From Bacteriovoracaceae bacterium (lineage in GTDB: Bacteria > Bdellovibrionota > Bacteriovoracia > Bacteriovoracales > Bacteriovoracaceae): a stretch of DNA of 32,791 bases. Shown here piece after piece: positions 2,121-32,727 of the stretch. The notes beneath the pieces were generated by a model, which searched no databases, was not told where the DNA came from, and saw only the letters and a program-made list of their open reading frames with translations. Positions within the stretch are counted from its first letter, which is position 1. Each line of letters starts with the position of its first letter. Made by a program: the position numbers and the translations under genes. The stretch spans positions 1-32,791 of the forward strand of contig JABIHA010000082.1 in NCBI GenBank assembly GCA_018649885.1, given 5' to 3'.

Positions 2121-3377
2121 ATGATGAATTTGATATCTAATTTGGTAGGGGTATTACTGACCCTTGGAGCCTCTTCAGCATTTGCTGACAGCTGGATTCT
2201 TGAAAACCCAAACCCAGAACTTTTAAAAGAAGTGGAAAGCATCCACGGCAAGGCAACAGAAAAAATTGTGTTAGGCGACAATGTTTTCTATACCATTTCT
2301 GGAAATAATCTTCCCGAGGCTCAATTTGCTTCTGCCGAAGTTGGTGAGTATCTACAAAGGATAACTGATGCCAGTAGTGCTCAACCCAACTACAATATTG
2401 GATTGGTAAAATCTGTTGATGCAACCAGTGGAAAAAAAGTAAGAGCTCCAGAGGGTTGGCATGTTAATAACCAAAATTATAAAAAACTCCATACTGTGGC
2501 CACGGGGAAAGATATTATAGTCGCAGTTTTAGACACAGGTGTTGACTACAAACATAACTCATTAAAAAACCATATCTGGAGTAATAAGAATGAGGTTCCA
2601 GGCAATGGTATTGATGATGATAAAAATGGTTATATTGACGATGTTGTAGGCTGGGACTTCATGGACAATGATAATGACCCCTCTGACGTCCAAGGACACG
2701 GTACACATTGTGCTGGGATTATCGGTGCAGATGCTATGAAAGGTGGGCTTTCTATGGGAATTGCTCCTGCTGCTAAGATTATGCCTATTAGGCTTCTTGC
2801 CAACAAGACTTTGCTCGCTGACGCGGCCCTCGCCATTAAGTATGCAGTTGATAATGGCGCAAAGGTATTAAGCAACTCATGGAGAATTTATTCTCAGTGG
2901 ACTCAATACGATCCCTCTCCAAAAAATCTTGCCATTTTTAAGGCCGCTATCGAGTACGCTCAGTCAAAAGATGTCATCTTTGTAGCTGCCACAGGAAATG
3001 AGAGAAAGGATATTAATAAACTATCCAACAAAATTTGGCCTGTAGGCTACCCAGGACTTACCCACCTTTTTGGCGTGGCTTCATCTGATCCTGATGGTAA
3101 GGCCTCTTCATTTACAAACTATGGTGATAAGTTCACTCATGTTGCTGCTCCTGGTAGAGATATCTACTCTACGATACCAGGAAATAGATGGGGCTTTAAA
3201 AGCGGAACATCAATGGCGACTCCACTAGTTGCTGGTGCTATTGCCTTGGCCTTAAGTACTGGAATGAGTGCTCATGCAGTCCTGGAAGATCTAGTCAAAA
3301 CCGCTGTCCCAAATAGACAGTGGGATCACTATGCAAAATCAGGTGGCGTGATCAACATCTACCAACTCTTAAAGTAA
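2121..3377 (+). CDS. Secreted S8 (subtilisin-like) serine peptidase
   Basis: Signal peptide ending SSAFA. Catalytic triad motifs VAVLDTG, HGTHCAG and SGTSMATP, plus the NGIDDDKNGYIDD insert. RBS AAGGAGGA at 2113-2120, so the start may be 2124 or 2130. Confidence 0.95.
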   Translation: MMNLISNLVGVLLTLGASSAFADSWILENPNPELLKEVESIHGKATEKIVLGDNVFYTISGNNLPEAQFASAEVGEYLQRITDASSAQPNYNIGLVKSVDATSGKKVRAPEGWHVNNQNYKKLHTVATGKDIIVAVLDTGVDYKHNSLKNHIWSNKNEVPGNGIDDDKNGYIDDVVGWDFMDNDNDPSDVQGHGTHCAGIIGADAMKGGLSMGIAPAAKIMPIRLLANKTLLADAALAIKYAVDNGAKVLSNSWRIYSQWTQYDPSPKNLAIFKAAIEYAQSKDVIFVAATGNERKDINKLSNKIWPVGYPGLTHLFGVASSDPDGKASSFTNYGDKFTHVAAPGRDIYSTIPGNRWGFKSGTSMATPLVAGAIALALSTGMSAHAVLEDLVKTAVPNRQWDHYAKSGGVINIYQLLK

Positions 3378-3388
3378 AAAAATTCCTT

Positions 3389-3419
3389 GAGCGCAGACCC
3401 TAGGGTCTGCGCTCTTTTT
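3389..3419 (+). terminator. Intrinsic terminator between the convergent S8 peptidase and nnrS
   Basis: Perfect 26-bp palindrome GAGCGCAGACCCTAGGGTCTGCGCTC (3389-3414) followed by TTTTT, just after the peptidase stop. Confidence 0.85.
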
Positions 3420-3429
3420 ACCCTACATT

Positions 3430-4587
3430 TTATTTTCCGTCTGGTCGTGGGCCAGTGAGTACTCCCCAAAATCTAATGATAAAAATCAAAAACCCTAGGG
3501 CCCAAATAGAGCTTGAGAAGTATAAACTTTCGATATAAGAATCGGGAAAAAATAGTGGTGTTACCACCCTCAATAGGGCTCCGAAAATAACACAAAAATA
3601 AGCTAGTACTACTGTCTTATCAGCCTCAATCACCCTGCCAGTATGTCCCAAAGAAACCCGACTCATAATACCCATTGCAACAGTTCCTAGACCCCCGGTC
3701 ATTAGCATATGCAAATTTGCTTTGGCAAAATACATATTTTCATTAAATAGTCCTACAAACTCTTGAATTAAACTCAAATTAATCAGTGCTATACCAATAT
3801 GCAAGATGAAGAGAATGGGAACTTTGATCGTTTTATGAGGTTTCCACATTAGCTGTCTAGTTATGTTACCAAGAATTGCTACAAGGTATACGAGGGCCAA
3901 AAAAGTCCTTGGTGTAGATTCTGGCCAGGGTACCACAAGAAGGGCAATGGGTATTAAGCTAACTGGGTTTATCCAGGCTGGTAGTGTGATTTCTACCCCT
4001 TCTATTTTTTTGCGAGTAAAAAATGGTGTTACTCGTCCTGCAATTAATAAAACAATCAAACGAATGATACTGGTTGCAGTATGTCTTCCTGAAACTTCAA
4101 TTAGGTCATGAGAAAATAGATTTCCCCAACTATGTGAGAATTTAGCTATGGTTAGAATCATCAAAATGGGGATAAATACATACTTTTGCTTTGGGAAATT
4201 CAAAAGTTTAATTAGTAGCATAATAGTCAAAGTGGGAAAGAAAAGATTCATCGTAAAAAATAACATACTTTCATTTAGAGGAAGAAAATAGGAAATCCTC
4301 TCCAGTAGCCAAAGCGATATTAAAAATAAAAGTGGGCCCCCGCTATATGGGGAAGAGCTTGTCCAGTTTGCACTTGCAGTTAAGATGAAGCCTGCTATAA
4401 GTGCGCCTGAAAATCCAAAAATCATTTCATGCCCATGCCAAAACATGGGGGAGACATTGGTCAAAGGGAGTGAGAGGTGCCCTTGATAATTGAGAATCCA
4501 GGCGACTGGATTTACCACTGCTATTAAAGCAGCAAGTATAAAAAATGGTCTAAAACTAATCGATAGAATTGGAAGAGTTTTTTTCAT
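3430..4587 (-). CDS. nnrS: NnrS family membrane protein (NO stress)
   Basis: Motifs FRPFF, WHGHEMIFGF, GFILTA..NWT, GRVTPFFT, MSRVSLGHTGR and C-terminal PRPDGK. Multiple TM segments. Downstream of qNor. Confidence 0.93.
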   Translation of the reverse strand: MKKTLPILSISFRPFFILAALIAVVNPVAWILNYQGHLSLPLTNVSPMFWHGHEMIFGFSGALIAGFILTASANWTSSSPYSGGPLLFLISLWLLERISYFLPLNESMLFFTMNLFFPTLTIMLLIKLLNFPKQKYVFIPILMILTIAKFSHSWGNLFSHDLIEVSGRHTATSIIRLIVLLIAGRVTPFFTRKKIEGVEITLPAWINPVSLIPIALLVVPWPESTPRTFLALVYLVAILGNITRQLMWKPHKTIKVPILFILHIGIALINLSLIQEFVGLFNENMYFAKANLHMLMTGGLGTVAMGIMSRVSLGHTGRVIEADKTVVLAYFCVIFGALLRVVTPLFFPDSYIESLYFSSSIWALGFLIFIIRFWGVLTGPRPDGK

Positions 4588-4617: not shown

Positions 4618-4767
4618 CTAGCTGCAGCTACCACAGCATCCATCATTGGATTCCTCTGAGTTTTCCTTACTATCTTTTACATCATTTTCAGTAGTCTGTG
4701 CTTCTTTTTCTTTAGTTTCTTTAGTTTCTTTAGTTTCTTTAGTTTCTTTAGTTTCATCTTCGTTCAT
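4618..4767 (-). CDS. 49-aa acidic microprotein with C-terminal CCGSCS motif (absent from the ORF track)
   Basis: Manual translation from ATG 4767 to TAG 4618: MNEDETKETKETKETKETKEKEAQTTENDVKDSKENSEESNDGCCGSCS*. A purine-rich AAAGAG precedes the ATG. It fills the gap between qNor and nnrS on the same strand. Confidence 0.8.
   Translation of the reverse strand: MNEDETKETKETKETKETKEKEAQTTENDVKDSKENSEESNDGCCGSCS
4711..4755. repeat. 9-bp tandem repeat (TTTAGTTTC)x5 encoding (ETK)x5
   Basis: Five exact copies read directly. Frame-preserving within the microprotein. Confidence 0.95.
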
Positions 4768-4799
4768 AGTTTTTCTCTTTGTAGTGAGTTTTATTATTT

Positions 4800-7073
4800 C
4801 TAACTTCCTAAAATCAAATCATCTTTGGCTATTTTATTTGGAGTTTTAATTTTAACTAAACTAGTTTTATCTAAGACTGCAATTGCAAAGCACATGGCCC
4901 CTGATGCAAAAACTACATCTCCAATGATTCTAAGCCACCTTAAGTTTTGTATCAAAGGGGACTGCATAACCTCACTCCCTCTTGCATACCAAAGACCTGT
5001 TTCAAGGGAAGCAGAAAATTGAATGAGTCCAATTGGAAGTAGACTTAATATAATCATTAACCCAAGACCTAGGTTGAGTCCCCAAAAAGCAAAACCCATA
5101 AATTTCTCATTCCACTGACGCTCGTTAAAAGCAGTTTGCACAATGAATAAAACCAACCCTAGAGATAAAGAGCCATAGACGCCAAAAGTAGCACCGTGTG
5201 CGTGAACAGCAGTGGTATTAAGGCCTTGTAAGAAATAAAGTGCAATTGGTGGATTGATTAAAAAACCAAATAATCCCGCTCCCACAAGATTCCAAAATGC
5301 AACTCCCACAAAAAATGTAATTGGCCATTTGTAGTTACCTGCCCAACTTGTGAGTTTTTGAATTCGGTAAGTATGGAATGCCTCAAACCCAATGAGCACT
5401 AAAGGGACAACTTCTAGAGCAGAAAAACAAGCGCCGATGGCACTTATTGAGGTTGGGGTACCACTAAAGTAAAGGTGATGAAAAGTCCCCGGGATTCCCC
5501 CTAAGAGAAATATAGAAGTTGAAAGTAGTGAGGCCTTTGTTGCCGATTTTGGTTTTATCAAACCTAGAGTCACAAAAATAAAAGCAAGTGAAACAGTGGC
5601 AAATACTTCAAAGAATCCCTCAACCCATAGGTGAACAACCCACCATCTCCAAAACTCCATTATACTAATATGAGTTCTCGCACCATAGAAAAGTCCACCG
5701 CCGTAAAATAAACCTATTGCGATGGTTGAGGCTGTAAAAAGTAGAAGAAGTTGTTTTGTATCCTTGGCTATTTTTAAGGCCGGCGCAATACATCTGAGCA
5801 TAAGTAGCAGCCAAACGCCGAGACCTACTAACAGGAGAATTTGCCAGACACGACCTAGATCGACGTACTCATAGCCTTGATGGCCAAACCAAAAGCTTAA
5901 ATCAATATCTAAAAGCTGATGAATCGCTAAAAATTCTCCAGTAAGGGATCCGAAAACAACAACTAATAGTGCTCCAAATAGAAAGTTCACTCCAAATACC
6001 TGGTACTTTGGATCTTTCCCCCCATTTATGACGGGAGCAAGAAAAAGGCCCGCAGCTAAAAAGGAAGTTGCTATCCAAAAAAGGGCAATTTGAATATGCC
6101 ATGTTCTGGCCAGAGTATAGGGAAGAAATCTTGACAGTGGAAAACCATAAAAATCTTGTCCTTCAACTGCGTAATGGGCGAGTATTCCCCCAAGACCAAT
6201 TTGTAAAATAAAGAGCAAAATGACTGTCGCCCAGTACTTCCAAAGTGTTTTCATCGACGGTGTTAATTTAAAGTTTTTTAGTGGATCAGATTTTGGAGGC
6301 GTTGTGCCCGTATCTTCATCTTTGCCATTAAAAGCATAAAACCAAACAAGAATGCCTATACTGGCCAGAAGTAAAATTACTGAAATAATAGACCAGTAAA
6401 TATTCTCACTTGTGGGTGTATTTCCTACCAGTGGTTCATGGGGCCAGTTATTGGTATAAGTATATTTTTGCCCTGGGCGATTTGCAGAAGCCGCCCAAGT
6501 AGACCAATGAAAGAATGCCATCATTTTTTCGCGCTTTTCTACGGATGGAAGAACTTCTTCGTGAATAGCATAGGCCTTTCTTGTTTCACGAAGCTCACTA
6601 GTGTTACTAAATAAACTGAGATAATACTTCTTGGTTTTGTTAAAGGCCTTAGTTCGAATATCAGAAATGACAACCTTGTTATCCACAACGGCCGAGTTTC
6701 GATAATCTTCCTCTATGGCACTTTTTATCTGTAATTTTTGAAATTGATCGAGATCACCATAACTTTTTTGGAAATTGGCAAGGCCATAAAATTCACCATA
6801 ATTGACAAGTTCTCGGTGTAACCAATCCGCTGTCCAATCTGGTGCTTGGTAGGCACCATGCCCCCAAATAGATCCAATTTGTTGTCCACCAATTGACTGC
6901 CAGACTACCTGCCCATCCAGAATATCTTCTTTGGTATAAAGTGTTGTGCCAGATTGTGAGCTAATAGTTTCATAAATTGGAGGGGCCTGCTTATAGACCT
7001 CTTTTCCAAAAAAACCCAAAATTGTGAATGTCCCCGTTAAAACACAGACAAGTAGCCACCAATACTTACGCAT
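4800..7073 (-). CDS. norB: Quinol-dependent nitric oxide reductase (qNor, single-subunit NorB/NorZ)
   Basis: GSIWGHGAYQAPDWTADWLHRE, YTNNWP, WWVVHLWVEGFFEVF, GTFHHLYF, ALEVVPL and HAHGA heme/FeB ligand motifs. Start preferred at ATG 7073 (MRKYW, preceded by GGGG); the ORF track start is 7106. Confidence 0.96.
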   Translation of the reverse strand: MRKYWWLLVCVLTGTFTILGFFGKEVYKQAPPIYETISSQSGTTLYTKEDILDGQVVWQSIGGQQIGSIWGHGAYQAPDWTADWLHRELVNYGEFYGLANFQKSYGDLDQFQKLQIKSAIEEDYRNSAVVDNKVVISDIRTKAFNKTKKYYLSLFSNTSELRETRKAYAIHEEVLPSVEKREKMMAFFHWSTWAASANRPGQKYTYTNNWPHEPLVGNTPTSENIYWSIISVILLLASIGILVWFYAFNGKDEDTGTTPPKSDPLKNFKLTPSMKTLWKYWATVILLFILQIGLGGILAHYAVEGQDFYGFPLSRFLPYTLARTWHIQIALFWIATSFLAAGLFLAPVINGGKDPKYQVFGVNFLFGALLVVVFGSLTGEFLAIHQLLDIDLSFWFGHQGYEYVDLGRVWQILLLVGLGVWLLLMLRCIAPALKIAKDTKQLLLLFTASTIAIGLFYGGGLFYGARTHISIMEFWRWWVVHLWVEGFFEVFATVSLAFIFVTLGLIKPKSATKASLLSTSIFLLGGIPGTFHHLYFSGTPTSISAIGACFSALEVVPLVLIGFEAFHTYRIQKLTSWAGNYKWPITFFVGVAFWNLVGAGLFGFLINPPIALYFLQGLNTTAVHAHGATFGVYGSLSLGLVLFIVQTAFNERQWNEKFMGFAFWGLNLGLGLMIILSLLPIGLIQFSASLETGLWYARGSEVMQSPLIQNLRWLRIIGDVVFASGAMCFAIAVLDKTSLVKIKTPNKIAKDDLILGS

Positions 7074-7105: not shown

Positions 7106-7126
7106 TTGATATATATTAAATATATC
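7106..7126. promoter_or_regulatory. Putative NsrR operator (7-5-7 inverted repeat), overlapping an FNR/DNR-like box
   Basis: GATATAT-ATTAA-ATATATC (7108-7126) resembles the NsrR consensus GATGYAT-N5-ATRCATC. TTGAT-ATAT-ATTAA (7106-7119) is one mismatch from TTGAT-N4-ATCAA. It lies between the divergent norB and nsrR. The AT-rich context weakens the match. Confidence 0.6.
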
Positions 7127-7160: not shown

Positions 7161-7559
7161 ATGCGACTAAAAACAAAAACAGACTATTGCATTAGAGTTC
7201 TTATTTATTTGCAGAGCAATATTGGCAGAGCAAAAATTCAAGACATCGCCGATAGCTACGGTATTTCAAAAAACCACCTAAGCGTTGCCGTGAACAAGCT
7301 CTCTGAGCTTGATTATATTATTTCGACTCAAGGTCCCAAAGGGGGGATCGAGTTTAATAAAGATGCAGAAAATAGAACCATTGGGGAGCTCATTTCCCAA
7401 TTAGAGGTTTTTGAAGTTGCTGAGTGTTTTGATAATGAAAGTAATACTTGTACCCTCAATCCCCATTGCAAATTAAAAGGAATGCTCAAAAAGGCAACAG
7501 CGTCTTTTATCAACGAGCTCAAAAACCATAAAATTAAAGATTTAATTGCGAAGTCCTAA
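7161..7559 (+). CDS. nsrR: Rrf2-family NO-sensing repressor NsrR
   Basis: MRLxxxTDY N-terminus (Asp8), HTH ISKNHL, GPKGG wing and three Fe-S Cys (ECFDNESNTCTLNPHCKLK). Divergent from qNor. Confidence 0.9.
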   Translation: MRLKTKTDYCIRVLIYLQSNIGRAKIQDIADSYGISKNHLSVAVNKLSELDYIISTQGPKGGIEFNKDAENRTIGELISQLEVFEVAECFDNESNTCTLNPHCKLKGMLKKATASFINELKNHKIKDLIAKS

Positions 7560-7591: not shown

Positions 7592-8008
7592 TTGCCGAGT
7601 GTAATAATTTTATTGATGTCTATTGTATTTACTAATCCTTTACTAGGATCTGAAACTGAGCCGCCAACACTAAGAGAAGTTATGCGAGGCCTTGAAAAAT
7701 CACTCAAGAAACTTGATCACGGAATTTTCTTCGAAGATTTTAAATTGATTAAAAAGTCTGCTATGGAGATAGCCATTCATCCAAAGCCTCTAGGAGAGCT
7801 TCCAAAAATCTTGAAAAAATTGGGAAAAAGGGCTCCAAGCTTTAAGGGCTTTGATCTAAAAGTGCATAATGCTGCTAAAGAGATGGCCGAGCTTGCATCG
7901 AAAAAAGATATGTTTGGTATACTCAACAAGCACTCCATCATGTTGAAAAACTGTGTAGGCTGTCATTTGCAATACAGAATTGAAATTGCCTCGCTTTTAA
8001 ATAATTAA
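7592..8008 (+). CDS. Periplasmic class II (c'-like, helical bundle) cytochrome c
   Basis: TTG start after AGGAG. Signal peptide, amphipathic helices and a single CxxCH (CVGCH) near the C-terminus. Confidence 0.8.
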   Translation: MPSVIILLMSIVFTNPLLGSETEPPTLREVMRGLEKSLKKLDHGIFFEDFKLIKKSAMEIAIHPKPLGELPKILKKLGKRAPSFKGFDLKVHNAAKEMAELASKKDMFGILNKHSIMLKNCVGCHLQYRIEIASLLNN

Positions 8009-12153: not shown

Positions 12154-12348
12154 GCAGCAAGCGAAATACAGTTATGGAGCGGGCCAATGGAGCCGGAGGC
12201 GACCAATAAAACAACCTTCGCCAGCCATTGATTGAGCAGCAAGCGAAATACAGTTATGGAGCGGGCCAATGGAGCCGGAGGCGACCAATAAAACAACCTT
12301 CGCCAGCCATTGATTGAGCAGCAAGCGAAATACAGTTATGGAGCGGGC
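12154..12348 (-). repeat. tRNA-linked tandem repeat, 82-bp period, about 2.4 identical copies, duplicating the tRNA-Gly 3' end
   Basis: The 31-mer GCAGCAAGCGAAATACAGTTATGGAGCGGGC starts at 12154, 12236 and 12318. The two 51-bp intervening segments are identical. The last 10 nt of the third copy are the tRNA 3' end (GCCCGCTCCA on minus). Confidence 0.95.
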
Positions 12349-32627: not shown

Positions 32628-32698
32628 TTCTCGACACATACTTTACATTTTTCTCGACACATACTTTACATTTTATTCTCGATACATGGTTTACACTT
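32628..32698 (+). repeat. Three ~23-bp direct repeats (putative transposase-binding sites)
   Basis: TTCTCGACACATACTTTACATTT x2 exact, plus TTCTCGATACATGGTTTACACTT. Confidence 0.9.
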
Positions 32699-32727
32699 TT
32701 TAAGGTACTGCAAACAAAGGGGGTTGC

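Follow-up and report, generated by a model that had tools for sequence, protein, structure and literature searches.

The closest described counterparts of the locus reported here are the NsrR regulon, the RIC proteins, the HMA metallochaperones, and a family of small proteins known by its CCGSCS motif. The NsrR regulon, as set out in the accessible text of PMC1274295, includes hmp, hcp-hcr, dnrN/ytfE, nnrS, and norB; the same text gives the operator consensus gATGyAT-(N5)-ATrCATc and describes NnrS as a heme-copper protein. NnrS guards the iron pool against dinitrosyl-iron complex (DNIC) formation, as the available part of PMC9246220 states from earlier work, and DNICs form on cysteine pairs (accessible part of PMC11013114). 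In RIC (also YtfE, DnrN, or ScdA; TIGR03652, NF008221), electrons reach the di-iron site from the vicinal pair Cys30/Cys31, and one RIC has a ferredoxin-like module at its C-terminus, according to the available sections of PMC9052748. The CCGSCS motif protein (TIGR04101) is an NCBIfam equivalog of 59 positions with a cut-off of 28 bits and unknown function. The papers searched contain nothing on it or on the microprotein described below, although other supplements and subscription papers may mention it, and the string CCGSCS does not occur in the accessible parts of the supplements of PMC6768983, PMC8175989, and PMC11526790. Supplementary table 1 of PMC8175989 ranks VVMO6_RS23435, a 'hypothetical protein', third among the genes derepressed in an nsrR deletion (log2 3.02).

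The DNA analysed, a stretch of 32,791 nucleotides from a Bacteriovoracaceae bacterium, is referred to as the window. On the same strand as norB and nnrS, between the two, it contains a 49-codon ORF with the translation MNEDETKETKETKETKETKEKEAQTTENDVKDSKENSEESNDGCCGSCS, separated by 32 nt from the norB stop (4800) and by 30 nt from the nnrS ATG (4587). A previous sequence-only reading had placed the ORF there with gaps of about 30 nt, had taken the flanking genes for those of the quinol-dependent NO reductase (qNor) and NnrS, and had described an acidic product ending in GCCGSCS-stop; all three descriptions proved accurate (Table 1), the product containing 16 D/E, 8 K/R, and 2 hydrophobic residues. 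Elsewhere in the window are an open-ended RCC1-like repeat protein (2-1948, recognized by eye) with a subtilase gene behind it (2121-3377), a perfect 82-bp tandem repeat of 2.4 copies (12154-12348), and a 23-bp repeat of 3.1 copies (32628-32701).

Table 1. Features of the NO-defence operon in the window and metagenome loci encoding HMA-domain proteins with a CCGGC tail
Feature	Position	Strand	Remarks
Hairpin terminator	3389..3414	.	separates nnrS from the convergent subtilase gene; + strand scored
nnrS	3430..4587	-	PF05940, 283 bits
Microprotein gene, 49 aa	4618..4767	-	acidic low-complexity linker and C-terminal DGCCGSCS; ATG start, TAG stop
D-G-C-C-G-S-C-S-stop motif	4618..4644	-	sole conserved part of the microprotein
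9-bp tandem repeat, 5.4 copies	4707..4755	-	encodes KET linker repeats; length-variable, unconserved
Weak Shine-Dalgarno-like AAAGAGA	4774..4780	-	before the microprotein ATG; read from sequence
norB, quinol-dependent NO reductase (qNor)	4800..7073	-	PF22085 and PF00115
Predicted NsrR operator	7108..7126	.	perfect palindrome GATATAT-N5-ATATATC between norB and nsrR
Divergent Rrf2 regulator, NsrR-like	7161..7559	+	best NCBIfam NF008240, 101 bits, below its cut-off of 182
Cytochrome c'-like gene behind nsrR	7592..8008	+	PF01322, 18.4 bits, below cut-off
HMA-tail proteins	L165:3758-4036, L187:2098-2376, L194:544-822		homologues P0005-P0038

The microprotein is the only one among 15,038 ATG-started ORFs of 30-70 aa in the genome that ends in CCGxCx, and because 11 other genomes carry the motif in their NO-defence loci, this ending is more than chance; by its conservation, the ORF is a real gene. 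Its Shine-Dalgarno-like element is weak, and orthologues have stronger ones (AGGAG, GGAG, or GGGG). The ORF has no match in Pfam or in NCBIfam (E ≤ 1), a phmmer search of 5.8 billion proteins yielded none among 5142 candidates, the ESM Atlas gave no usable match, the tail profile found nothing among PDB sequences, and the exact sequence is absent from the cluster collection searched. Three tiny, identical contigs from one RNA library, with a depth of 2-4, cover 151 nt of nnrS, 39 nt of the ORF's repeat, and 151 nt of norB, and do not show transcription.

The start of norB is likely to be at 7073 rather than 7106, since its relatives (757 aa) begin at the equivalent Met, a GGGG site precedes it, and the longer start would abut the predicted operator. 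The closest named relatives of nnrS are from Halobacteriovorax and Oligoflexia (53-62% identity), which points to a Bacteriovoracaceae-like host. The operator palindrome agrees with the published consensus at 12 of 14 positions and overlaps the predicted -10 element of a norB promoter, in a window in which the promoter scan performs at chance level (13 found versus 13.0 expected). Palindromes at the same place score 10-12 of 14 in 15 related intergenic regions (12 + 3). The score alone is weak evidence because 35 sites in this genome reach 12/14, and the uniqueness of the site as a perfect relaxed palindrome concerns a pattern picked after the site had been seen; the prediction of an NsrR operator is therefore carried by the position and conservation of the palindrome. 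The divergent regulator retains the N-terminal Asp and three Cys residues. The sequence-only reading had considered NsrR control probable, and the operon does lie behind a predicted NsrR box, next to an nsrR homologue. We infer that the microprotein is co-transcribed with norB and nnrS, the hairpin behind nnrS being the likely end of the operon, and repression by NsrR with induction by NO is the likely, predicted mode of control. The cytochrome c'-like gene, possibly an NO-binding accessory, also adjoins the module in three other genomes (G054, G021, and G684).

A survey of 237 genomes of the family identified nnrS at E ≤ 1e-20 in 42 genomes (44 loci), and 46 nnrS loci, including two weaker ones, were examined. 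In nine of these, CCG[SGT]CS-stop lies up to about 35 nt upstream of nnrS; this count leaves out two loose regex matches, one in G015 and one in G718. When all 237 genomes were scanned with two DNA patterns independently of nnrS, 14 matches were obtained, 12 of which are genuine (the nine nnrS-linked loci and three more) and two due to chance; the reversed patterns gave one and no matches, and other motif variants could be missed because the patterns cover just two spellings. All 12 genuine copies are in NO-defence loci, seven as free acidic ORFs of 35-49 aa and five as C-terminal tails of RIC/YtfE, so that the window ORF has equivalents, free or RIC-fused, in 11 other genomes. Eleven of the 12 loci face a divergent nsrR homologue with 62-100% identity to that of the window and lie behind a conserved NsrR-type palindrome; a close nsrR was not found in G648, an 80% complete genome. 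The adjoining genes include nnrS in nine, ric in eight, and norB in seven loci, and nnrS is present somewhere in all 12 genomes. The free ORF lies between norB and nnrS in G000, directly before nnrS in G054, G651, and G648, behind ric and a PAS/hemerythrin gene with nnrS following (G634) or without it (G007), and behind norB and ric in G032. The tailed ric follows norB and precedes nnrS in G051, G021, G684, and G646, and follows norB in G015.

Among orthologues, the motif shows synonymous changes in its Cys, Gly, and Ser codons, the five free forms that were aligned share only M1, one K, and CCGxCS, and no RNA structure at the junction is common to the orthologues (z -2.05 to +1.15). Given the synonymous changes, the variable linker, and the missing common fold, selection acts at the protein level. 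In the NnrS tree, the nine nnrS-linked cases are all found in one clade of 16 rows (support 100/99), which also contains five truncated-globin operons and two orphan nnrS genes, and the four nnrS-linked RIC fusions form one group and represent one event. The motif cases are consequently not independent, and the family loci reflect one origin and many rearrangements rather than 12 separate cases.

Two generalizations failed: the motif is not always upstream of nnrS, as the family-wide patterns revealed in G015, G032, and G007, and it is not mutually exclusive with truncated globin, as G015 has both operon types. The second NsrR operon type of the family (L047:7394-9432, L057:6386-8437, L088, L089, L091, and L230) consists of truncated globin and nnrS or, in G605, of globin and a ferredoxin-reductase-like gene, the latter pair being a likely split flavohaemoglobin; the motif is absent from five NsrR-linked nnrS operons with truncated globin. 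In one operon of the kind studied here (L002:6148-7030), nnrS is followed by small membrane genes resembling COX3 and COX4. Across 301 genomes from the order of G104, the family pattern gave five matches and its reversed control also five, and the former were judged to be chance from the matched letters alone. Two plasmid matches by tblastn were both chance, and viral patterns (37 + 1 matches) included no genuine small gene.

The CCGSCS family named in the sequence-only reading does exist, but the window ORF is not a member by score: TIGR04101 gave no match at E ≤ 1, and the ORF remained unmatched in a genome search at E ≤ 10. The best-scoring orthologue, that of G054, reaches 15.5-16.5 of the required 28 bits, whereas a true member scores 51.4. 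True members combine an N-terminal FKxIF-like segment with KHGxxGxCCG[SG]CS; the window ORF has the C-terminal CCG[SG]CS, and neither KHGxxG nor the FKxIF-like segment is present in any of the seven free forms. Copies with shuffled linkers score like the real ones on a 20-sequence profile (mean 10.7 versus -0.4 to 20.8 bits), so the tail and composition account for the likeness to TIGR04101, and the case for homology comprises 6-8 residues. Judged from this tail, the ORF is an unannotated variant of the CCGSCS microprotein type, in a form that standard HMMs miss. TIGR04101 itself exceeded its cut-off in none of 101 relatives, 5 handles, and 300 genomes of one class, in one of 201 genomes of one order, and in two of 121 relatives of that match.

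A pattern scan of metagenomes produced 88 matches, of which 61 were family-like after filtering and 47 were distinct full-length genes with enough upstream DNA. An NsrR box scoring at least 11/14 was identified within 110 nt upstream of 29 of these 47 TIGR04101-type genes (10 of 16 sequence clusters at 60%), compared with 0.7 expected by shuffling and with 0 of 46 downstream, and the site logo agrees with the 11-1-11 consensus given in the accessible text of PMC8175989. The box scores below 11/14 in the other 18 genes, and whole lineages (Marinicella/Psychrobacter-type and Alcanivoracaceae-type) are box-less; two Marinicella-type genomes lack a close nsrR and possess nnrS. Source names include Photobacterium, Marinobacter, Halomonas/Billgrantia, and Thalassotalea. 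Eight NO-operon queries, including nnrS, had no blastp match in the fetched flanks of the 61 loci, and no NO-related Pfam domain was found among 43 selected neighbours. The predicted link to NO and NsrR would thus extend to the TIGR04101 family at the level of the operator. In 14 Marinobacter-type loci of one lineage (L151:3402-3908 and 13 others), a PCu(A)C-like copper chaperone gene, an assignment checked by Pfam in one member, is convergent with the CCGSCS gene. In two Marinicella-type loci (L060:1810-3171 and L083:1816-3165), a cystathionine lyase/synthase-like gene (weak matches) precedes the CCGSCS gene, which lacks an NsrR box.

A profile search of 1.84 billion representatives yielded 38 matches at E ≤ 0.001, all of 95 aa or less, mostly free members with a few HMA-like fusions. 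Three metagenome HMA-domain proteins (PF00403, 36-41 bits; Table 1) end in HGEDGNCCGGCT, a longer tail of the form HGxxGxCCGxC, and their genes are preceded by NsrR boxes of 12, 11, and 10 of 14. Among 34 homologues, CCGGC is retained in 33, a proportion biased by the use of a tail-bearing query for retrieval, and the canonical CxxC loop is whole in one, reduced to one Cys in 21, without Cys in 10, and unparsed in two. An AlphaFold2 model of an HMA-tail protein adopts the CopZ fold (rmsd 0.9 Å to 2qif), with a low-confidence tail predicted to be disordered. This family in Castellaniella, Pusillimonas, and Paenalcaligenes has a conserved HGEDGNCCGGC tail and is annotated merely as HMA proteins. 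Since the shared homology is just 6-8 residues, the HMA clue may not transfer to the window ORF.

In the one RIC fusion protein scanned, from G051, the RIC part exceeds the cut-offs of the YtfE model (257 versus 254 bits) and TIGR03652 (224 versus 204.7), runs about 10 residues beyond the end of the models, and terminates in DGCCGSCS. The fusions keep the tail while identity over their final 170 aa falls to 77-81%, and all eight RIC-like matches outside the motif operon type lack it (135 of 236 genomes sampled). In L044, L045, L084, and L085, the nsrR-norB-ric::tail-nnrS block (RIC C-terminal part) is 92-99% identical across four genera, which suggests recent horizontal transfer.

The reading that we favour, at about an even level of belief, is that the ORF encodes a predicted disordered, cytoplasmic microprotein, likely induced through NsrR, that acts as a metal-thiolate sink or shuttle for iron (as dinitrosyl-iron) or for Cu/Zn freed by NO. 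NO would destroy the NsrR cluster, the operon would then be expressed and the microprotein made, and the CCGxC thiolate tail would bind metal set loose by NO, most simply iron as DNICs, and hand it to RIC, NnrS, or Fe-S repair. In support of this reading, the tail is kept in 12 NO-defence loci and is portable onto RIC and, in a longer form, onto the HMA fold, NsrR-type boxes lie upstream, and the published accounts of NnrS guarding the iron pool (PMC9246220) and of DNICs on cysteine pairs (PMC11013114) fit it. The putative metal differs with the partner, RIC pointing to Fe and HMA to Cu/Zn. The thiol or metal role put forward in the sequence-only reading gains backing from the same fusions. 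A 49-residue peptide and natural RIC and HMA fusions make such a function directly testable, in the context of the handling of NO-freed iron and of metal or electron supply to NnrS and RIC; an orphan family would gain a testable role and NO-defence operons a missed gene.

The main competitor, which we regard as possible though on the doubtful side, is a metal-free thiol device, in which the tail, as a vicinal dithiol/disulfide, would relay electrons for RIC or NnrS or would be a sacrificial S-nitrosothiol sink. The electron-passing Cys pair of RIC itself (PMC9052748, available sections) offers a precedent, the tail resembles the DFCCGG of RIC, to which it is fused in five genomes, and in G634 and G007 a free microprotein accompanies a RIC without the N-terminal Cys domain. 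Against such a relay, RIC was not found in four of the five free-ORF genomes tested, the window's own included, the one full fusion read and the fusion of G015 retain a CC pair of their own, the invariant third Cys exceeds the need of a dithiol, and the HMA fusions point to metal. A wider form of the metal-thiolate reading is doubtful to a slightly greater degree: CCGxC would be a portable three-thiol NO-response module, free, attached to RIC, or replacing the HMA CxxC loop, that traps iron released from Fe-S clusters as DNICs and returns it to repair. If true, it would constitute a dedicated, genetically encoded DNIC scavenger, the missing soluble partner of iron protection by NnrS and RIC.

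A dedicated factor assembling the copper (or heme) site of NnrS in trans is unlikely. The motif is directly upstream of nnrS in nine of 12 loci, nnrS occurs in all 12 genomes and in both Marinicella-type genomes, and the heme-copper nature of NnrS (PMC1274295, accessible text), the HMA fusions, and the convergent PCu(A)C-like neighbour in 14 loci would fit; however, 37 of the 46 family nnrS loci lack such an ORF, including seven of 16 in the same clade, nnrS does not adjoin the motif in three loci, and TIGR04101-type genes have none in the fetched flanks. The NnrS-specific role suggested by the sequence-only reading therefore keeps its genome-wide association and loses its constant adjacency. 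A complex prediction for NnrS, heme, and the last 32 residues of the microprotein scored 0.02 (mark 0.32) and speaks neither for nor against such a factor.

Still less probably, the ORF specifies the precursor of a modified peptide (RiPP) or is a remnant without function. The linker is of low complexity, and one metagenome match joins a PF02979 leader to a similar core, but no modifying enzymes or exporters were found among the ORFs read in the motif loci, and protein-level selection on the motif spans several genera. The match itself (L189:1593-1829), with a nitrile-hydratase-like leader and a core ending in CCGSCT, adjoins a glutamate-cysteine ligase family gene and is possibly a RiPP precursor.

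The absence of a constant structural neighbour makes the two remaining explanations very improbable. Mycobacterial polycysteine ORFs provide the analogy for a cis-acting cysteine-sensing leader, which would tie nnrS translation to thiol status. The Cys codons do lie just before the stop, within about 35 nt of the nnrS start, in nine loci, and the RIC fusion has the same spacing; yet in G015, G032, and G007 the operon ends with the motif, which makes a leader highly unlikely, the junction has no common RNA fold, and convergent genes often follow TIGR04101-type genes. A chaperone for the non-heme FeB site of qNor, which the sequence-only reading had also considered, would suit the position directly downstream of norB in the window and the presence of norB in seven of 12 loci, but can hardly be upheld, as norB is missing from five loci and the four norB-less genomes tested (G054, G651, G648, and G634) yielded no qNor, just heme-copper oxidase matches of 28-29%.

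Compared with the described systems, the locus shares operator geometry, the divergent nsrR, and core genes with the NsrR regulon of PMC1274295, and differs in its microprotein, since in the accessible text of that paper no Cys-tailed microprotein appears and 'Bdellovibrio' has no occurrence. Like RIC, the microprotein belongs to a predicted NsrR regulon, and its tail is found on RIC in five relatives; unlike RIC, it lacks the ScdA_N and di-iron hemerythrin domains by Pfam, both of which the G051 fusion has, and the search of the window's genome yielded no RIC. With the CopZ/Atx1/MerP HMA metallochaperones (PF00403), which are small, soluble, Cys-based metal carriers, it is connected by those that end in a TIGR04101-type tail, whereas it has no folded domain, the ferredoxin-like fold with the MxCxxC loop being absent from the window ORF (no Pfam match) and present in the distant fusions alone, in which the canonical CxxC has mostly decayed. 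The resemblance to TIGR04101 proteins consists in a charged low-complexity protein of about 50 aa, a CCG[SG]CS end, and predicted NsrR control; TIGR04101 members stand apart from NO genes, whereas the window ORF is located inside an NO operon.
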